DNA of 64,000 nt from NCBI GenBank assembly GCA_965237675.1, contig OZ250150.1:4992001-5056000 (forward strand). Direction: 5' to 3'. Positions 44,690 to 62,993 of this stretch are shown here, in pieces. Numbering within the stretch: position 1 is the first letter of the stretch; each line of letters opens with the position of its first letter. This stretch comes from Candidatus Latescibacterota bacterium. GTDB taxonomy: Bacteria > Latescibacterota > UBA2968 > GCA-2709665. Position numbers and translations under genes: made by a program. Under the pieces are notes generated by a model. That model was not told where the DNA came from. It saw only the letters and a program-made list of their open reading frames with translations, and made no database searches.

Positions 44690-47600
44690 CTATTCTGAAC
44701 TATCACCAGATTCGCTGCTTCCGCTTCTCGAAGACGAGTCGCGTTCAATGTGGCGAGTGAGAATGACCATGTCAGCGAAATTAATGACCCCGTCGCGATT
44801 CAAATCCATCCTGGGGTCGAACCCTGAATCCGACGAACTCAGCCCGGATTTCTTATTGAACATGGCTGCGTCGTCTGCGTCGGTTCTACCGTCGCGATTG
44901 AAGTCACCCGACGAAATTGTTATCATAAATAGACGTGATGCCGTCCTGCCATCGTGATCTGTCACGTTCACGGTCACGTAGAAATTGCCGCTTTCCGTTG
45001 GCGTCCCAGAAATATCTCCTGACGAAGAAATACTCAATCCGGACGGCGCATCGGACAATGAATAGCTGTAGGATGTAACACCGCCGGATACATCGACGGA
45101 TATGACGTCAATCCCGGCGTTCAATTCCCCAAATGCATCGTTGATCGGAGCAATAAACAAGGGTTCCGCAACCCGCATTGTGAAAGATCTCGCTGCCGAG
45201 TAGTCGTCGTCGTCAGTGACGGTCACGTTCATGGTGAAATTACCAATCGACGAGGGTGTGCCCGAAATCAACCCACCTGAAGAAATGGCAAGACCCGAGC
45301 CGGACGTGCCCGAAAGCGAATAGGAATATGGCGTTGTGCCCCCGGAGGCGCTTACTTGTATAGATGAAATAGCCTCGCCTTTCGATGCCACCACGTTGGA
45401 AATCGCTGAAACGGACACCGGCGAAATCACCCTAACATTGAACGACTCATCGTCGGTCGCACCCTGCTTGTCCGTTGCGGTCACAGTCACCACATTTGAC
45501 GTGAGTGGACCCTGCGCTGTACCGCTGATAGCCCCTGTGGAACTATTAACCGATACCCAGGACGGCCCGCTCTTCTTGCTATATCTGATCGGCGTACAAC
45601 CTCCTGATGCCGACGCTGTTCTTGATGGCATCGTCTGACCGGCCTTAACCGTAACGTCTACGATATCGTTGACGGATAACGAAGTCGCACCTAAAACCTT
45701 TATGTCAAACGACTCATCGTCGATCTGACCCAAATTGCCCGTAGCCAGCACCGCCACCGTATAGTTCCCGCAAGCAGCAGAACTCGGCACCGTTCCCGTA
45801 ATGCTGCCGTTCGAGGCAACCCTGATCCAAGACGGGCCGCTCTTCTTCGTAAACGTGATCGGCGTACATCCTCCCGACGCGGTCGGCGTGACATTGATAG
45901 ATCCGTCCGGCGACTTCGTCATGTTCGAGATCGACCCGATGGCAAGCGTCGCACCCGGAACGGTGATGGTGAAGGATGTTTCGCAGGTCATCCCGTCTCT
46001 GTCGGTCGCCTTGACGACTACCGTGTAACTGTTGCATCTGGCCGAAGTCGGTACCGTGCCGGTGATCCTGCCACCGGAGGACACACTGATCCACGACGGG
46101 CCGCTCTTCTTCGTAAATGTGATCGGCGTGCACCCACCCGTCGTTGTGGCCGTGATGTCGATCGAACCACCCGCCGCCTTCGTCACGTCCGGGATTGACC
46201 CGCAGGTGAGCGTCGCACCCGGAACGGTGATGGTGAAGGATGTTTCGCAGGTCATCCCGTCTCTGTCGGTCGCCTTGACGACTACCGTGTAACTGTTGCA
46301 TCTGGCCGAAGTCGGTACCGTGCCGGTGATCCTGCCACCGGAGGACACACTGATCCACGACGGGCCGCTCTTCTTCGTAAATGTGATCGGCGTGCACCCA
46401 CCCGTCGTTGTGGCCGTGATGTCGATCGAACCACCCGCCGCCTTCGTCACGTCCGGGATTGACCCGCAGGTGAGCGTCGCACCCGGAACGGTGATGGTGA
46501 AGGATGTTTCGCAGGTCATCCCGTCTCTGTCGGTCGCCTTCACGACTACCGTGTAACTGTTGCATCTGGCCGAAGTCGGTACCGTGCCGGTGATCCTGCC
46601 GCCGGAGGACACACTGATCCACGACGGGCCGCTCTTCTTCGTAAATGTGATCGGCGTGCACCCACCCGTCGTTGTGGCCGTGATGTCGATCGAACCACCC
46701 GCCGCCTTCGTCACGTCCGGGATTGACCCGCAGGTGAGCGTCGCACCCGGAACGGTGATGGTGAAGGATGTTTCGCAGGTCATCCCGTCTCTGTCGGTCG
46801 CCTTCACGACTACCGTGTAACTGTTGCATCTGGCCGAAGTCGGTACCGTGCCGGTGATCCTGCCGCCGGAGGACACACTGATCCACGACGGGCCGCTCTT
46901 CTTCGTGAACGTCTTCGTCCCGCACCCACCGGATGTTGTGGCCGTGATGTCGATGGACGCGCCCGCCGCCTTCGTCATGTTCGAGATCGACCCGCAAGTA
47001 AGCGTCGCACCCGGAACGGTGATGGTGAAGGATGCTTCGCAGGTCATCCCGTCTCTGTCGGTCGCCTTGACGACTACCGTGTAACTGTTGCATCTGGCCG
47101 AAGTCGGTACCGTGCCGGTGATCCTGCCACCGGAGGACACACTGATCCACGACGGGCCGCTCTTCTTCGTAAATGTGATCGGCGTGCACCCACCCGTCGT
47201 TGTGGCCGTGATGTCGATCGAACCACCCGCCGCCTTCGTCACGTCCGGGATTGACCCGCAGGTGAGCGTCGCACCCGGAACGGTGATGGTGAAGGATGTT
47301 TCGCAGGTCATCCCGTCTCTGTCGGTCGCCTTCACGACTACCGTGTAACTGTTGCATCTGGCCGAAGTCGGTACCGTGCCGGTGATCCTGCCGCCGGAGG
47401 ACACACTGATCCACGACGGGCCGCTCTTCTTCGTAAATGTGATCGGCGTGCACCCACCCGTCGTTGTGGCCGTGATGTCGATCGAACCACCCGCCGCCTT
47501 CGTCACGTCCGGGATTGACCCGCAGGTGAGCGTCGCACCCGGAACGGTGATGGTGAAGGATGTTTCGCAGGTCATCCCGTCTCTGTCGGTCGCCTTCACG

Positions 47601-50600
47601 ACTACCGTGTAACTGTTGCATCTGGCCGAAGTCGGTACCGTGCCGGTGATCCTGCCGCCGGAGGACACACTGATCCACGACGGGCCGCTCTTCTTCGTGA
47701 ACGTCTTCGTCCCGCACCCACCGGATGTTGTGGCCGTGATGTCGATGGACGCGCCCGCCGCCTTCGTCATGTTCGAGATCGACCCGCAAGTAAGCGTCGC
47801 ACCCGGAACGGTGATGGTGAAGGATGCTTCGCAGGTCTTCCCGTCTCTGTCGGTCGCCTTCACGACTACCGTGTAATTGTTGCACCTGGCCGAAGTTGGT
47901 ACCGTCCCGGTGATGCTTCCGCCATCGGACACACTGACCCACGACGGACCGCTCTTCTTTGTAAACGTCTTCGTCCCGCACCCACCGGATGCGGTGGCCG
48001 TGACGTCGATGGACGCGCCCGCCGCCTTCGTCATGTTCGAGATCGACCCGCAGGTAAGCGTCGCACCCGGAACGGTGATGGTGAATGACTCTTCGTCGGT
48101 ATTCCCGTTCCCGTCGGTCACCTTCACCGTCACCGTGGGACTGCTGCACCTGGCCGAAGTTGGTACCGTCCCGGTGATCCTGCCGCCGGAGGACACACTG
48201 ACCCACGATGGACCGCTCTTCTTCGTGAACGTCTTCGTCCCGCACCCACCGGATGCGCTCGACGAGACATTGATCGAACCACCCGGCGACGCCGTCACGT
48301 CGTCGATATCCTCGACCGCAAGCGCCTCGCCAGAAACCGTGATCATAAACGATGCGTCCGCGGTCGCACCCTGCGCGTCCGTCGCCGTCACCGTCACCGT
48401 AAAGCTCTCGCAACCCGCTGTACCCGGCACCGTCCCCGTGATGCTGCCGTCCGACGCCACGCTGATCCACGAAGGCGTATCGCTGCCGGTCTTCTTCGTA
48501 AACGCGACCGGCGTGCATCCGCCCGTCGCGCTCGACGAGACATTGATCGAACCACCCGGCGACGCCGTCACGTCGTCAATATCCTCGACCGCAAGCGCCT
48601 CGCCAGAAACCGTGATCATAAACGATGCGTCCGCGGTCGCACCCTGCGCGTCCGTGGCCGTCAACGTCACCGTAAAGCTCTCGCAACCCGCTGTACCCGG
48701 CACCGTCCCCGTGATGCTGCCGTCCGACGCCACGCTGATCCACGAAGGCGTATCGCTGCCGGTCTTCTTCGTAAACGCGACCGGCGTGCATCCGCCCGTC
48801 GCACTCGACGTGATATTGATGGAGCCGCCAGGTGACGCCGTCACGTCGTCAATATCCTCGACCGCAAGCACTTCGCTCGAAACCGTGATCATAAACGACG
48901 CGTCGGCGGTCGCACCTTGCGCGTCCGTGGCCGTCAACGTCACCGTAAAACTCTCGCAACCCGCTGAACTCGGTACCGTTCCCGTGATGCTGCCGTCCGA
49001 CGCAACGCTGATCCACGACGGCGTATCACTTCCTGGCTTCTTCGCAAACGTGATCGGCGTGCACCCGCCCGTCGCACTCGACGTGATATTGATGGAGCCG
49101 CCAGGTGACGCCGTCACGTCGTCAAGGTCATCGATCGCAAGCGCCTCGCTCGAAACCGTGATCGCGAACGACGCGTCGGCGGTCGCACCCTGTGCGTCCG
49201 TGGCCGTCACCGTCACCGTAAAACTCTCGCAACCCGCTGAACTCGGTACCGTTCCCGTGATGCTGCCGTCCGACGCGACACTGATCCACGACGGCGTATC
49301 ACTGCCGGTCTTCTTCGAAAACGTGATCGGCGTGCATCCACCACTCGCGCTCGACGTGATATTGATCGAGCCGCCAGGAGACGCCGGCACGTCGTCGATA
49401 TTATCGACCGCAAGCGCCTCGCCCGTAACCGTGATCATAAACGACGCGTCGGCGGTTGCACCCTGCGCGTCCGTCGCCGTCACCGTCACCGTAAAACTCT
49501 CGCAACCAGTTGAACTCGGCACCGTTCCCGTGATGCTGCCGTCCGACGCGACACTGATCCACGACGGCGTATCACTGCCGGTCTTCTTCGAAAACGTGAT
49601 CGGCGTGCATCCACCACTCGCGCTCGACGTGATATTGATCGAGCCGCCAGGAGACGCCGGCACGTCGTCGATATTATCGACCGCAAGCGCCTCGCCCGTA
49701 ACCGTGATCGCGAACGACGCGTCGGCGGTCGCACCCTGCGCGTCCGTCGCCGTCACCGTCACCGTAAAACTCTCGCAACCAGTTGAACTCGGCACCGTTC
49801 CCGTGATGCTGCCGTCCGACGCGACACTGATCCACGACGGCGTATCACTGCCGGTCTTCTTCGAAAACGTGATCGGCGTGCATCCACCACTCGCGCTCGA
49901 CGTGATATTGATCGAGCCGCCAGGAGACGCCGGCACGTCGTCGATATTATCGACCGCAAGCGCCTCGCCCGTAACCGTGATCGCGAACGACGCGTCGGCG
50001 GTCGCACCCTGCGCGTCCGTCGCCGTCACCGTCACCGTAAAACTCTCGCAACCAGTTGAAGCCGGCACCGTTCCCGTGATGCTGCCGTCCGACGCGACAC
50101 TGATCCACGACGGCGTATCACTGCCGGTCTTCTTCGAAAACGTGATCGGCGTGCATCCACCACTCGCGCTCGACGTGATATTGATCGAGCCGCCAGGAGA
50201 CGCCGGCACGTCGTCGATATTATCGACCGCAAGCGCCTCGCCCGTAACCGTGATCATAAACGACGCGTCGGCGGTTGCACCCTGCGCGTCCGTCGCCGTC
50301 ACCGTCACCGTAAAACTCTCGCAACCAGTTGAAGCCGGCACCGTTCCCGTGATGCTGCCGTCCGACGCGACACTGATCCACGACGGCGTATCACTGCCGG
50401 TCTTCTTCGAAAACGTGATCGGCGTGCATCCACCACTCGCGCTCGACGTGATATTGATCGAGCCGCCAGGAGACGCCGGCACGTCGTCGATATTATCGAC
50501 CGCAAGCGCCTCGCCCGTAACCGTGATCATAAACGACGCGTCGGCGGTTGCACCCTGCGCGTCCGTCGCCGTCACCGTCACCGTAAAACTCTCGCAACCA

Positions 50601-51457
50601 GTTGAAGCCGGCACCGTTCCCGTGATGCTGCCGTCCGACGCGACACTGATCCACGACGGCGTATCACTGCCGGTCTTCTTCGAAAACGTGATCGGCGTGC
50701 ATCCACCACTCGCGCTCGACGTGATATTGATCGAGCCGCCAGGAGACGCCGGCACGTCGTCGATATCGTCGATCACGAGCGTCGGACAGTTTGGTTCCCC
50801 AGGCGTGGCGAAGGCCACATCCGAGGAAGGTCCAACCTTGCTTCCGGCTTGCGCCCTGACTTTGAACCGATACGTGGTGCCGTTCGTCAGATCGGTCACG
50901 ATATAGGTCGTCGTGTTCCTTTCGCTGCCTGGCACATCATTCCAAACATACGGTTGTCTGCCCTCCTTGACGCCGTATCGCCAGGATGAAACTCGATCCG
51001 TGGCGCTGGCCGCGCTCCAAGACAGCGTCACCTGCTCGTCGCCCGCTAACGCACTTAAGGTCGGAGTTGGGAAATCCTGCCCCTGACCGGGGGTGGCAGA
51101 CACCGCATCCGACGAAGGCCCTGTTTCGCTACCATCTCGCGCTTGAACCTTGAACCGATACGGGGTCCCATTCGTCAGGCCCGTCACCGTATACCTTGTT
51201 GTGTTCCTGTTGCTGCCTGGTACTTCCTTCCAAACATACGCGTTTCTGCCCTCCTTGACGCCGTATCTCCAGGATGAGGCTCGATCGGTGCTCTGAACCT
51301 CACTCCACGTCAGCGTCACCTGCCCGTCGCCCGCGACGGCAGTTACGGTCGGCGTTGGGAAACTCTGACCGTAAGATTGGGCGGGTAAACCTAAGAGCGA
51401 CACTAATGCAGAAAATAATGCGATACCGATTACGGCCTTTCGGTTAGCGTAATACAT
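44690..51457 (-). CDS. Giant surface protein: 2 FN3 + 22 Ig-like (He_PIG/cadherin-like) repeats + C-terminal dockerin
   Basis: Signal peptide; VTGLTNGT.YRFKV FN3 motifs; PSW.SV..G.ITGT.P...TVTATD repeats; GDFNRDG...DLNRDGVINFADM paired EF-hand dockerin. Confidence 0.9.
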   Translation of the reverse strand: MYYANRKAVIGIALFSALVSLLGLPAQSYGQSFPTPTVTAVAGDGQVTLTWSEVQSTDRASSWRYGVKEGRNAYVWKEVPGSNRNTTRYTVTGLTNGTPYRFKVQARDGSETGPSSDAVSATPGQGQDFPTPTLSALAGDEQVTLSWSAASATDRVSSWRYGVKEGRQPYVWNDVPGSERNTTTYIVTDLTNGTTYRFKVRAQAGSKVGPSSDVAFATPGEPNCPTLVIDDIDDVPASPGGSINITSSASGGCTPITFSKKTGSDTPSWISVASDGSITGTVPASTGCESFTVTVTATDAQGATADASFMITVTGEALAVDNIDDVPASPGGSINITSSASGGCTPITFSKKTGSDTPSWISVASDGSITGTVPASTGCESFTVTVTATDAQGATADASFMITVTGEALAVDNIDDVPASPGGSINITSSASGGCTPITFSKKTGSDTPSWISVASDGSITGTVPASTGCESFTVTVTATDAQGATADASFAITVTGEALAVDNIDDVPASPGGSINITSSASGGCTPITFSKKTGSDTPSWISVASDGSITGTVPSSTGCESFTVTVTATDAQGATADASFAITVTGEALAVDNIDDVPASPGGSINITSSASGGCTPITFSKKTGSDTPSWISVASDGSITGTVPSSTGCESFTVTVTATDAQGATADASFMITVTGEALAVDNIDDVPASPGGSINITSSASGGCTPITFSKKTGSDTPSWISVASDGSITGTVPSSAGCESFTVTVTATDAQGATADASFAITVSSEALAIDDLDDVTASPGGSINITSSATGGCTPITFAKKPGSDTPSWISVASDGSITGTVPSSAGCESFTVTLTATDAQGATADASFMITVSSEVLAVEDIDDVTASPGGSINITSSATGGCTPVAFTKKTGSDTPSWISVASDGSITGTVPGTAGCESFTVTLTATDAQGATADASFMITVSGEALAVEDIDDVTASPGGSINVSSSATGGCTPVAFTKKTGSDTPSWISVASDGSITGTVPGTAGCESFTVTVTATDAQGATADASFMITVSGEALAVEDIDDVTASPGGSINVSSSASGGCGTKTFTKKSGPSWVSVSSGGRITGTVPTSARCSSPTVTVKVTDGNGNTDEESFTITVPGATLTCGSISNMTKAAGASIDVTATASGGCGTKTFTKKSGPSWVSVSDGGSITGTVPTSARCNNYTVVVKATDRDGKTCEASFTITVPGATLTCGSISNMTKAAGASIDITATTSGGCGTKTFTKKSGPSWISVSSGGRITGTVPTSARCNSYTVVVKATDRDGMTCETSFTITVPGATLTCGSIPDVTKAAGGSIDITATTTGGCTPITFTKKSGPSWISVSSGGRITGTVPTSARCNSYTVVVKATDRDGMTCETSFTITVPGATLTCGSIPDVTKAAGGSIDITATTTGGCTPITFTKKSGPSWISVSSGGRITGTVPTSARCNSYTVVVKATDRDGMTCEASFTITVPGATLTCGSISNMTKAAGASIDITATTSGGCGTKTFTKKSGPSWISVSSGGRITGTVPTSARCNSYTVVVKATDRDGMTCETSFTITVPGATLTCGSIPDVTKAAGGSIDITATTTGGCTPITFTKKSGPSWISVSSGGRITGTVPTSARCNSYTVVVKATDRDGMTCETSFTITVPGATLTCGSIPDVTKAAGGSIDITATTTGGCTPITFTKKSGPSWISVSSGGRITGTVPTSARCNSYTVVVKATDRDGMTCETSFTITVPGATLTCGSIPDVTKAAGGSIDITATTTGGCTPITFTKKSGPSWISVSSGGRITGTVPTSARCNSYTVVVKATDRDGMTCETSFTITVPGATLAIGSISNMTKSPDGSINVTPTASGGCTPITFTKKSGPSWIRVASNGSITGTVPSSAACGNYTVAVLATGNLGQIDDESFDIKVLGATSLSVNDIVDVTVKAGQTMPSRTASASGGCTPIRYSKKSGPSWVSVNSSTGAISGTAQGPLTSNVVTVTATDKQGATDDESFNVRVISPVSVSAISNVVASKGEAISSIQVSASGGTTPYSYSLSGTSGSGLAISSGGLISGTPSSIGNFTMNVTVTDDDDYSAARSFTMRVAEPLFIAPINDAFGELNAGIDVISVDVSGGVTSYSYSLSDAPSGLSISSSGDISGTPTESGNFYVTVNVTDHDGRTASRLFMITISSGDFNRDGRTDADDAAMFNKKSGLSSSDSGFDPRMDLNRDGVINFADMVILTRHIERDSSSRSGSSESGDSSE
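45950..48061 (-). repeat. Eight tandem 264-bp (88-aa) coding repeats, type B
   Basis: Near-identical units at 264-bp spacing (mirrored by shadow ORFs at 46032, 46296, ...); a hybrid A/B unit lies at 48062-48325. Confidence 0.95.
48326..50782 (-). repeat. Nine tandem 273-bp (91-aa) coding repeats, type A
   Basis: Near-identical units at 273-bp spacing, all with KK(T/P)GSDTPSW. Confidence 0.95.
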
Positions 51458-61119: not shown

Positions 61120-61220
61120 GCCTCAACGCTCAAAATCCATTCCTTCCTTGACAGAACCCCTCGTTTCTGCGTTATTTTTCCGCTAAACAATGCCGAGTAA
61201 TCTCTGTGGAGGTTCTGCCC

Positions 61221-62993
61221 ATGACAAAGTGCGGTTTGTTTTCACTTGTTGTTGCCTCGTTGTTATGTACTGCCGCCGCCGCGCAGGACGACCCGCTCCT
61301 TACGAGTTTCCCTCACGAAGTATTCCCAAATTGCCGAATGTGCGGACTGCCTGGCGCCGCAATGTTCGATTACGACAACGACGGCGACCTGGACGTCTAC
61401 GTTGCAAACGGTCATGGGTACCGCAACTACCTGCTCGAAAACGACGGGAACGGTAATTTCAGGGACGTCGCCAGGGAGGCGGGGGTGGCTGCTGTGAAGG
61501 TAGCAACCCACGGCGTGGCGAGCGCCGATATCGACAACGACGGCGACCCGGATCTGTTCGCGGCCACCGACGGACGGAATTATCTCTTCCTGAACAACGG
61601 CGACGGGACGTTTGACGACATCACGGAATCCGCGGGCATCGTCTCCCGTTACTTCTCATCCACCGTTGCGTTTGCCGACGTCGACAACGACGGGTACGTG
61701 GACATTTACGTGGGCGGCGCCGGCGGCGAGAGTGGCGTGGAGATAAACAGACGCGTGGGTACAGGTGAACTCTATCTCAACAATGGCGATCTCACTTTTA
61801 CAGACATTACCGATGAAACCGGCACCGCGGCGACGTACACGTGGTCCGTGCGCTTCTGCGACTATGACGACGACGGAGACCCGGACCTGTTCACCGCCAA
61901 CGACCAGGGTATTTCTCTGGACGTGGATTGGTCTCCCATCCTGCTCCACAGGAACGAGGGGAACCTGAGGTTCACGGACGTCACCAGGGAAGCCCGCCTC
62001 GGAATCACGGGAAGCTGGATGGGGCTTGCGTTCGGAGATTACGATCTGGACGGCGACTTCGACTTATTCGCCACCAACGTCGGCGGCTCCTTCGTGGACA
62101 AGAAGGGTCACCAGGAATACGATCTGCACGGATTCTTCCGCAACGACCAGGGTGTATTCACCAACATTGCCGAAGAATTAAAAGTTACCGGGGAACGCAG
62201 CCTGGCCAAATTGGAATTCGGCTGGGGAACGGTTTTCACGGATTTCGACAACGACGGCGACCTGGACCTGTACTACGTGGGCAACTTCAACATGCTCCTG
62301 GCATATTACAACCCGGGCCACCTGTTGATTAACGACGGGGCCGGGGCGTTCAAAGATTCCACGGCGCGCTACGGTCTGCAGACCGTTGACGGTTCCGGCA
62401 TTCCAACCATCGCGGTTGGCGTTGCGACCGGCGACGTCAACAACGACGGCCACGTCGATATTTTCGTTACAAATGCCGGAACGGATTTCCGAACCGGTTA
62501 TCCGATGCTGTTTACGGAAAAATTCGACGACAACAACTGGATCCGTCTCAAATTGGAAGGCACCGAAAGCAACCGGTCGGCCATCGGCGCCAGGATCCTG
62601 CTGACCGCGGGCGGCAAGACCCAGATTCGCGACGTTGCCAGCGGCGGAAGCAGTTTCTCACAGCACAGCCTCTGGCCGACGTTCGGCATCGGCACCAGCG
62701 CCGTGATTGACTCCATCAACATCCGCTGGCCCAGTGGCATTGTCCAGACGATCAGGGAGGTTGAGCCCAACCAGACCCTTCCAATCCTGGAGGAGCGTCC
62801 GCCCCCTGACGTCGTATACGCCAATCCCCACACCGATTTCAATGGCGACGGTAGCGTCGATTTCAGCGATTTCATCGCCTTTGCCAGGGCGTTCAACACG
62901 GATGATTCAACCTACGATCTGAACGGAAACAACCTGGTTGACTTCACCGATTTTATTGAATTCGCGAAGTCTTTCGGTCGACCGCTGCCGTAG
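61221..62993 (+). CDS. CRTAC1-family (FG-GAP/VCBS repeats + ASPIC/UnbV) protein with a C-terminal dockerin-like domain
   Basis: DYDNDGDLD repeats, N.GDGTF.DIT, SNRSAIGARI, FGIG, IRWPSG; tail DFNGDGSVDFSDF...DLNGNNLVDFTDF; ATG 61221 with GGAGG RBS. Confidence 0.9.
   Translation: MTKCGLFSLVVASLLCTAAAAQDDPLLTSFPHEVFPNCRMCGLPGAAMFDYDNDGDLDVYVANGHGYRNYLLENDGNGNFRDVAREAGVAAVKVATHGVASADIDNDGDPDLFAATDGRNYLFLNNGDGTFDDITESAGIVSRYFSSTVAFADVDNDGYVDIYVGGAGGESGVEINRRVGTGELYLNNGDLTFTDITDETGTAATYTWSVRFCDYDDDGDPDLFTANDQGISLDVDWSPILLHRNEGNLRFTDVTREARLGITGSWMGLAFGDYDLDGDFDLFATNVGGSFVDKKGHQEYDLHGFFRNDQGVFTNIAEELKVTGERSLAKLEFGWGTVFTDFDNDGDLDLYYVGNFNMLLAYYNPGHLLINDGAGAFKDSTARYGLQTVDGSGIPTIAVGVATGDVNNDGHVDIFVTNAGTDFRTGYPMLFTEKFDDNNWIRLKLEGTESNRSAIGARILLTAGGKTQIRDVASGGSSFSQHSLWPTFGIGTSAVIDSINIRWPSGIVQTIREVEPNQTLPILEERPPPDVVYANPHTDFNGDGSVDFSDFIAFARAFNTDDSTYDLNGNNLVDFTDFIEFAKSFGRPLP

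Follow-up and report, generated by a model that had tools for sequence, protein, structure and literature searches.

Introduction

Long extracellular rods made of tandem beta-sandwich domains are known to be secured either by Ca2+ held at the linkers, as in cadherins and RTX adhesins, or by isopeptide and ester locks within each domain, as in Gram-positive pili and adhesins. Here, we describe a gene of Candidatus Latescibacterota that lies in a 64,000-nucleotide stretch of contig OZ250150.1 (assembly GCA_965237675.1, positions 4,992,001 to 5,056,000; hereafter the window) and encodes, as a single open frame (44690..51457, minus strand), a secreted rod protein of 2255 amino acids (aa). The cysteine pattern, its counterparts in relatives and a structural model suggest that neighbouring domains of this rod are probably tied by a chain of disulfides that cross the domain junctions, together with further disulfides between the A and G strands of some domains.

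Cadherin extracellular repeats (PF00028) are, like the rod, tandem seven-strand beta-sandwiches joined by short linkers. As listed in an excerpt of PMC5115871, the Ca2+ ligands at a cadherin junction come from XEX and DRE of the first repeat, DXNDN of the linker, as well as DXD and XDX of the second repeat. The motifs DXNDN, DRE and DXD of that excerpt are absent from the rod, whose linkers read TGEALAV, SGEALAV and PGATLT(C), and its match to PF00028 sums to 78.3 bits with no stretch passing alone, the best local match covering profile positions 64-92. Instead of Ca2+, the bridge at a rod junction would be a covalent S-S bond. The extenders of RTX adhesins, such as region II of MpIBP (excerpts of PMC4083281 and PMC7493085), share with the rod the near-identical tandem immunoglobulin (Ig)-like repeats that project a tip, as well as rigidity at the linkers. 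The Pfam scan of the rod found no RTX or T1SS family, and its C-terminus is a dockerin; unlike an RTX adhesin, the rod would thus be anchored by the dockerin, with junctions fixed by the proposed disulfides instead of Ca2+.

The closest functional analogues are the covalently cross-linked adhesins and pilins of Gram-positive bacteria, whose intramolecular links are of the isopeptide, ester, thioester or disulfide kind. The 51-domain adhesin of Mobiluncus mulieris, as described in an excerpt of PMC10619420, is likewise a long Ig-like rod with a covalent cross-link that forms autonomously in nearly every domain, and the links from first to last strand that make such domains inextensible resemble the A-G disulfide that we propose for the 11th to 18th repeats of the rod. 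According to the same excerpt, these cross-links are intradomain and mostly amide or ester bonds, with a disulfide joining strands 2 and 5, whereas those of the rod would be disulfides and mostly interdomain. The ester motif HxDxxDxxQ given there has no match in the rod, which holds two His in total, and the Pfam scan returned no pilin-type isopeptide family. A further parallel is non-cellulosomal cohesin-dockerin display, which also pairs a C-terminal type I dockerin with cohesins encoded in the genome; the cargo of the rod differs in being without an enzyme or a recognised binding module. Among open-access papers and preprints, we found no description of tandem Ig, cadherin or FN3 rods that naturally carry a chain of disulfides across their junctions, and the comparison supports the rod as a form of covalently cross-linked surface rod not described before.

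Results

Cysteine classes along the rod

The protein is all-beta, with no catalytic domain recognised, and consists of a signal peptide, two FN3 domains, 22 He_PIG domains (D1-D22) and a dockerin (Pfam). We split it on the SGG anchor and classified every cysteine, taking domain borders from Pfam He_PIG and from a hidden Markov model (HMM) built from the 22 repeats. The 56 cysteines comprise C224 ahead of D1, 20 in GGC (D1-D20), 19 that lie five residues past GTVP (D1-D19; contexts STGC, SAGC or TAGC, SARC and SAAC), and eight each in LTC and TCE, both in D11-D18 only. On the HMM, they fall at column 31 (GGC), column 63 (post-GTVP), column 7 (LTC, in strand A) and column 80 (TCE, the second residue of strand G).

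C224 (50786..50788; minus strand, like all parts of this gene given below) sits in the linker sequence 'EPN[C]P' just ahead of strand A of D1, where relatives have the linker Cys that goes with their GGC, and its proposed partner is C253, the GGC of D1. D1-D9 (48335..50791) are 91-aa units that each carry GGC in the BC loop and a post-GTVP Cys in the EF loop, the loops being assigned from the predicted strand map described below. D10 (48071..48334), the first 88-aa unit, has only these two cysteines, and D11-D18 (45959..48070), also of 88 aa, have four each (GGC, post-GTVP, LT[C] and T[C]E). D19 (45689..45958) returns to GGC and a post-GTVP Cys (SAA[C]) without the A/G pair, and D20 (45428..45688) ends the chain with GGC only (C1954), for which C1896 of D19 is the proposed partner. 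D21-D22 (44912..45427) are free of cysteine, and comparison with relatives shows that this pair is kept ahead of the dockerin across the family.

This inventory exactly reproduces the cysteine description in an earlier sequence-only reading of positions 45400-50790 (residues ~223-2019, i.e., from D1 to the start of D21), including the GGC and post-GTVP series, the linker Cys of EPNC, the missing post-GT Cys of D20 and the GGTT of D21. That reading had further stated that every GGC domain follows a domain with a post-GTVP Cys, and had taken this as a sign of bonds from domain n to domain n+1. The order itself stands. The n/n+1 layout is not visible as such, both cysteines lying within the same domain in D1-D19 by the Pfam and HMM borders, and the statement concerns the register of pairing rather than a layout that can be seen. 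A chain that begins at C224 leaves none of the 56 cysteines unpaired, whereas pairing within domains would give two free thiols, C224 and C1954, which lie 1730 residues from each other. If paired along the chain, C224-C253 would enclose 29 residues, the junction staples 56-58 residues and the A-G pairs 73 residues; the gap from GGC to the post-GTVP Cys is 32-35 residues and that from TCE to the next LTC is 15 residues.

Classifying all 56 cysteines also bore out that LTC and TCE are present or absent together in each domain. D10 has no TCE and yet D11 has LTC, and D18 has TCE with D19 reading LAIG, an edge pattern that excludes pairing of LTC and TCE from one domain to the next. An A-plus-G pair moreover stands alone in relatives, for example in D1 of the same-genus protein L017 (columns 9 and 82), and the two observations support the proposed intradomain bond. 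The shift from columns 7/80 to 9/82 is +2 on both strands, which fits the parallel A'-G pairing of Ig-like folds. At the corresponding places, D1-D10 are acidic, both in a strand-A motif (V[DE][DN]IDDV) and in the FG loop (DAQGATADAS), where D11-D18 read TCGSISNM or TCGSIPDV and DRDGMTCE. As a speculation, a metal site may have been replaced by the A-G disulfide in D11-D18.

Predicted strand order and the poles of the domain

We modelled residues 215-495, i.e., the linker and D1-D3, with AlphaFold2 (AF2) from a 29-row alignment of the rod's own sliding windows and 17 short homologs, and obtained a mean predicted local distance difference test score (pLDDT) of 93.3 and a predicted template modelling score (pTM) of 0.71. 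In D1, DSSP assigned strands A/A' to fragment positions 14-15 and 21-23, B to 28-36, C to 43-46, C' to 56-58, E to 63-67, F to 76-84 and G to 90-99. The GGC cysteine, at position 39, comes right after B; the post-GTVP Cys, at position 74, comes two residues ahead of F. Since strand A leaves the N-terminus and B returns, the BC loop with GGC lies at the N-terminal pole of the domain; since F (nine residues) starts at the EF loop and ends at the FG loop, with G (ten residues) leading back to the C-terminus, the EF loop lies at the C-terminal pole. In relatives, the FG-loop Cys co-occurs with a linker Cys, which places the far end of F at the N-terminal pole and hence position 74 about one F strand away from position 39. 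By ordinary beta-strand geometry, this strand order would put the GGC and post-GTVP cysteines of one domain roughly 30 A apart.

Sitting at opposite poles, the two cysteines of a domain could pair only across a junction. In the model, that junction is faced from one side by the EF Cys of domain n, located at its C-terminal pole, and from the other by the BC Cys of domain n+1, located at its N-terminal pole; the DSSP order and the co-occurrence of cysteines in relatives agree on this placement. At the level of strand order, this three-repeat fragment geometrically excludes a bond between GGC and the post-GTVP Cys of the same domain, which was the alternative that the sequence-only reading had set against its own proposal.

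Cadherin tandems head the Foldseek/VIA matches of the AF2 model, which also include titin, NCAM and an RTX-adhesin tetra-repeat (6xi1), the rows being tied within about one Z unit; the match to PCDH15 EC8-10 has a Z of 11.9 and a root-mean-square deviation of 11.1 A over 265 residues. A sequence search of the PDB with the rod protein gave only weak matches, to phage decoration proteins and one LPXTG protein. Pfam aligns C1280 of the rod (post-GTVP, column 63) to position 64 of the Cadherin profile, which we take to lie just after DRE, with the rod GGC at the place of DXD. If this assumed placement holds, the four cysteine sites (linker, BC, FG and preceding EF) would presumably be the four Ca2+-ligand sites.

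Mean-field direct-coupling analysis of 2105 adjacent He_PIG pairs (effective number of sequences ~1650; the rod and three close relatives excluded) gave no usable interdomain contact signal. The strongest couplings between domains were gap artefacts and repeat echoes within one column (42-42, 1-1 and 50-50), and the couplings recovered within domains (2-77, 2-31 and 32-76) were largely the cysteine pairs themselves.

Cysteine partners in homologs and in arrays of the same genus

For homologs, we mapped the cysteines of the 150 best representatives from a search of 1.84 billion proteins to the columns of the 22-repeat HMM. Across 3023 homolog domains, Cys occurs 32 times at column 31 (GGC), once at column 63 and 208 times at column 78 (FG loop). 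Among the 859 near-complete domains (128 proteins), 742 have no cysteine, and 103 of the 117 that do have exactly two; the pairs include linker plus FG in 66 domains and linker plus GGC (BC) in 30. Among the 859, GGC is never seen without a linker Cys, and the pair of GGC and post-GTP Cys is absent. A further 18 proteins contributed 40 linker-plus-BC pairs, 50 linker-plus-FG pairs and one lone BC Cys, the latter apparently in a hybrid domain with a linker Cys upstream. The dockerin and the two Cys-free domains ahead of it are also present in the closest relatives, in which 'x[C]P' stands directly ahead of strand A of each GGC domain. These pairs indicate that the BC and FG loops adjoin the domain's own N-terminal linker, in agreement with the AF2 model and independently of it.

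We then pooled 106 GGC-type domains from 151 proteins and 11 open reading frames (ORFs) of the genus, sets that partly overlap and are kin, so that the counts are descriptive and not a test. The GGC has a Cys in its own linker, with no EF Cys in the preceding domain, in 75 of the 106; in 30 (19 of the rod itself and 11 of relatives) there is no linker Cys and the preceding domain has an EF Cys. Not one domain has both partners, and one (L013 D4) has neither. Seen from the other side, all 30 EF-Cys domains, which belong to the rod and three close relatives, precede a GGC domain without linker Cys; nine stray cysteines at columns 58-65 of other proteins lie in partial matches, and none of them precedes a GGC domain. 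The rule extends to D21-type domains (at least 42% identity to rod D21): seven have GGC, six of these with a linker Cys and one (in genome G003) following an EF Cys. Among the listed D21-type domains that lack GGC, rod D21 included, a linker Cys is present only in P0151 D8 and P0032 D3.

A same-genus search of 41 related genomes retrieved 11 regions. Three proteins in them share the two-Cys domain type of the rod (columns 31 and 63), namely L011 in genome G003 and L012 and L013 in genome G013. L011 consists of a linker Cys, seven domains with columns 31 and 63, a D21-type domain with column 31 only, a Cys-free domain and a dockerin, and L012 and L013 each have a linker Cys, two domains with columns 31 and 63, and then a domain with columns 9, 31 and 82. 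By alignment, the parity at the edges, with an extra linker Cys at the start and a partner that offers GGC without an EF Cys at the end, recurs with three types of terminal domain: that of rod D20, the D21 type and the A-G-pair type. In the other members of the genus (G002, G014, G012 and G008), each Cys-bearing domain has a linker Cys plus one of columns 31, 78 and 82, and the combination of EF and BC cysteines is found, among the proteins searched, only in those of G000 (the genome of the rod), G003 and G013. The same-genus FN3/He_PIG/dockerin proteins with one pair per domain (L014, L015, L016, L017, P0124 and P0143) resemble the rod in architecture, in their two Cys-free last domains, in the dockerin tail and in the position of GGC; they differ in that the putative staple stays at the N-terminal pole of one domain (linker plus BC or FG), whereas in the rod the partner lies in the preceding EF loop, across the junction. 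The pairing from domain n to n+1 that had been proposed from the sequence is thus supported by the strand map, by the partner rule of GGC in relatives and by the recurrent edge parity of other arrays.

The repeats of the rod are recent duplicates: Tandem Repeats Finder reports 273-bp units in 9.2 copies with 96% matches, followed by 264-bp units in 9.3 copies with 93% matches. Within the rod, the apparent co-variation of cysteines therefore amounts to few independent events, namely the two edges of the array and the borders of the LTC/TCE block, and it is the relatives, not the 20 copies, that make the pattern more than chance. This bears on the reading that the pattern has no structural meaning, a two-Cys repeat unit having simply been amplified with coincidental cysteines at its edges. 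The repeats are 91-96% identical in DNA, so that 19 of 20 agreements would be copies of one another; edges of differing sequence type nevertheless obey the rule in four He_PIG and two FN3 arrays, and a linker Cys and a preceding EF Cys exclude each other throughout the 106 domains. We therefore regard mere amplification as very unlikely.

Even less can be said for an ordinary disulfide between GGC and the post-GTVP Cys of each domain, with C224 and C1954 as leftover free thiols. The two cysteines do lie within one Pfam domain throughout D1-D19, consecutive and at a short spacing (32-35 residues). However, in the AF2 strand map they flank the domain at its two opposite ends, the GGC of relatives is accompanied at the N-terminal pole by a linker Cys (75 of 106), no homolog domain outside the clade shows the pair (0 of 859), and chance would have to account for the same two leftover cysteines in G003, in both G013 proteins and in the FN3 rods described below. 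Same-domain pairing is for these reasons scarcely credible. The offset cysteines might also bond between molecules, the C-terminal pole of one chain to the N-terminal pole of a staggered neighbour, to give bundles or sheets, and parity alone does not separate intramolecular from intermolecular pairing. Against such a lattice, which needs no closure, the chain closes at both ends within one polypeptide in six arrays, and the linker-Cys alternative of the relatives is clearly intramolecular; we hold this arrangement to be highly improbable.

Some arrays also show a cysteine at HMM column 18, in the A'-B turn at the C-terminal pole, followed by a three-Cys domain (linker plus two of BC and FG): P0172, P0187, L013 D4-D5 and L018, an own-genome paralog in which residues 1959-2134 are concerned. 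The sequences suggest that the column-18 Cys and the next three-Cys domain may form a second kind of junction-crossing staple. In P0171 (residues 452-540), the first He_PIG unit resembles a fusion of two domains, its F strand running into the B strand of the next, which might stem from an in-frame deletion or from faulty assembly of that record.

FN3 rods with the same offset

An own-genome paralog outside the window (L039:883-7659; G000:C1:1688882-1695658), of 2258 aa with 40 cysteines, shares with the rod the signal peptide and first two FN3 domains at one end and the He_PIG pair and dockerin at the other, its middle being FN3 (~20 domains, of which 16 stretches pass Pfam). With loops named from textbook FN3 topology and by motif reading, C288 stands alone in the first Cys-bearing FN3 ('LTD[C]TEY', EF loop), 19 FN3 domains follow that have an EF Cys and an FG-loop Cys 12-13 residues later, and the last partner is C2043 in the GG[C] of a D21-type He_PIG without linker Cys. 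Because two cysteines at opposite ends of an FN3 F strand cannot bond to each other, the pairing would be offset, from EF(n) to FG(n+1), and would use all 40.

An ortholog in G014 (L040; G014:C1:619000-632000, ORF from base 1707, plus strand) has 2491 aa and matches 21 EF cysteines with 21 cysteines at the N-terminal pole, of which 18 are in FG loops, two in FN3 BC loops and one in a He_PIG GGC; there is one extra Cys in the middle of an F strand (residue 1783). In the two FN3 domains with a BC-loop Cys ('SGS[C]GITGY') there is no FG Cys, and the EF Cys of the domain ahead is retained. A two-step version occurs in G008, where an FN3 with linker, FG and EF cysteines precedes one whose only Cys is in the FG loop. 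Among 491 predicted exported proteins of the genome, the rod (56 cysteines) and its FN3 paralog (40) rank first and second in cysteine count.

Oxidation capacity and points against a disulfide chain

Several observations weigh against a junction-crossing chain of disulfides. All arrays that support it belong to a single genus and are kin, which means that they represent few truly independent events, and we found no relative with EF and BC cysteines outside this genus in the collections searched. The search of 1.84 billion proteins gave at best 42% identity to the rod and a single Cys at column 63 among the 3023 homolog domains; two scans of metagenome contigs gave nothing close to the rod; contigs of GTDB genomes yielded EF-plus-BC arrays only in the two genus members already known; and a set of 5.8 billion proteins, searched at near and longer lengths, contained no such array outside the genus. 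Within the genus, L013 D4 (G013:C2:630000-648000) has a GGC with neither partner, and the mature L013 has an odd number of cysteines (17). A linker Cys combined with a C-x-C FG loop (columns 76 and 78) has no visible fourth partner in P0096 D5-D6, L012 D4-D5 and L014 D7. The pole argument itself uses DSSP strand order and general knowledge of beta-sandwiches, i.e., only the topology of the model. Modelled from the same 29-row alignment set, the unstapled D20-D22 reached a pLDDT of 94.6 and a pTM of 0.74, compared with 93.3 and 0.71 for D1-D3, the stapled fragment. The pTM has no power to tell stapled from unstapled fragments (0.71 versus 0.74), and we counted it neither way; a stiffening of the rod by the staples thus gains no support from the AF2 models.

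The genome, which is 99.93% complete, shows no DsbB, VKOR or Thioredoxin_4-type DsbA, and its sole DSBA-family protein has no signal peptide (G000; loci L033 and L036 were examined). It does encode a DsbD-type protein and several thioredoxin-fold proteins, one of which (L036:1447-2025, minus strand) combines a signal-like N-terminus with WCGWC and is, judged by its sequence, a candidate exported oxidoreductase. The exported proteome also speaks against extensive disulfide formation. Gene calling and signal-peptide prediction with home-made heuristics gave a crude set of 491 predicted exported proteins, 117 of which have no Cys, 103 one and 77 two. The number is even in 151 of the 374 Cys-containing exported proteins (40%), compared to 1026 of 2164 cytoplasmic proteins (47%). 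Exclusion of Cys from exported proteins is typical of organisms that do not rely on disulfides, according to an excerpt of PMC2823432, and by the criteria given there the exported set falls under Cys exclusion, with no bias towards even numbers.

These findings are what favours the reading that the junction cysteines are true neighbours and yet not oxidised in vivo, remaining as thiols or jointly holding a metal ion for want of an oxidative folding pathway; that cadherins bind metal at the junction points the same way. Other observations are harder to reconcile with it. Cysteines come strictly two by two in the homologs (exactly two in 103 of the 117 Cys-bearing domains), two thiolates alone make a poor structural metal site, and it is hard to square useless reactive thiols with the rod and its FN3 paralog being the most Cys-rich of the 491 exported proteins. 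The genome encodes a heme-copper oxidase, which indicates that the organism meets oxygen and makes extracellular oxidation plausible. Juxtaposed extracellular thiols oxidise readily. We consider permanently reduced junctions unlikely, while granting them a real share of the possibilities.

Proposed disulfide chain

Our preferred reading is a disulfide chain with its register shifted by one domain. After Sec export, the domains would fold such that each junction sets an EF-loop thiol beside a BC-loop thiol, and oxidation by an unknown catalyst or by O2, which we infer, would then yield 20 junction staples and eight A-G staples. The chain would start with C224 and the GGC of D1, continue from the EF Cys of each domain n to the BC Cys of n+1, and end with C1896-C1954; in D11-D18, an additional intradomain disulfide would connect LTC in strand A with TCE where strand G begins. 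Provided that disulfides form at all, this register is highly probable, and their formation is quite likely; with the two combined, we judge the full arrangement of junction-crossing disulfides and A-G pairs to be probable, from the cysteine pattern and the model together.

Each junction staple would enclose strands F and G of domain n and strands A and B of domain n+1. Under load, D1-D10 would be extensible only over the 32-35 residues per domain between GGC and the post-GTVP Cys. In D11-D18, the staple loops would overlap and leave no extensible segment, the covalent path per domain being one S-S and 15 backbone residues, which would make this part essentially inextensible. The staples would sit in the junction region where cadherins bind Ca2+, which would make the rod a Ca2+-independent tether resistant to proteases and force. 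Through its dockerin, the rod would be attached at its C-terminus to a cohesin protein of the genome, with the two FN3 domains at the distal tip.

Other features of the gene and the window

Translation and Pfam define the ends of the gene. A predicted Sec signal peptide (residues 1-30; 51368..51457, minus strand), with cleavage probably after SYG, is free of cysteine, which means that the rod is not a lipoprotein. It is followed by FN3 domain 1 (residues 37-121; 51095..51349) and FN3 domain 2 (approximately residues 133-216; 50810..51061), both on the minus strand and without Cys. The type I dockerin (residues 2184-2237; 44747..44908, minus strand) matches PF00404 with 30.2 bits (gathering score 22.9), and its Ca2+-loop repeat segments are, as we take the loop motif to be, DFNRDGRTDADD and DLNRDGVINFAD. 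The He_PIG family PF05345 matches with 628.4 bits in 22 stretches (gathering score 24 bits) and FN3 (PF00041) with 59.9-65 bits in two stretches (gathering score 25 bits); weaker matches to RibLong, Big_13 and Cadherin overlap the same He_PIG repeats. As possible partners of the dockerin, the same genome has six cohesin (PF00963) matches above the cut-off, together with 28 dockerin matches genome-wide.

The neighbouring genes encode a TPR protein, a FlgD_ig-tailed protein, a TonB-dependent receptor with CarboxypepD_reg and Plug domains, and a DUF3179 protein, among which we found no functional link. Two long ORFs in other frames lie within the repeats (45714-48518, minus strand, 934 aa; 47877-50906, plus strand, 1009 aa) and are most likely by-products of the G+C-rich repeats rather than genes. 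A second protein of the window that bears a dockerin (61206-62993, plus strand) has FG-GAP repeats and ASPIC/UnbV, with a weak C-terminal dockerin match at 62832-62954 (23.9 bits).

Discussion

The He_PIG and FN3 arrays can be brought together in a broader and more tentative proposal, a genus-wide "disulfide zipper" of dockerin-tethered rods. In two unrelated folds, a bond from each EF loop to the BC or FG loop of the following domain would take the place of cadherin-type Ca2+ sites, giving nearly inextensible chains of 20 domains in an organism without DsbB or VKOR. We rate this generalisation as possible, falling a little short of an even chance. Forming such a zipper without these enzymes would call for an unknown exported oxidase or for self-oxidation outside the cell.

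If the junction-crossing disulfide chain is real, it would be a third solution for building rods besides Ca2+ at linkers and locks within domains, one that is metal-independent and redox-switchable, and it would be an unusual route to a stiff surface tether that is hard to stretch. Its signature in single-molecule experiments would be unfolding steps that are short or absent and that appear only after reduction. The motif could also serve protein engineering of rigid linkers. The occurrence of the offset scheme in two folds, in an organism without DsbB or VKOR, raises the question of how uncultured bacteria of the FCB group oxidise their extracellular proteins.

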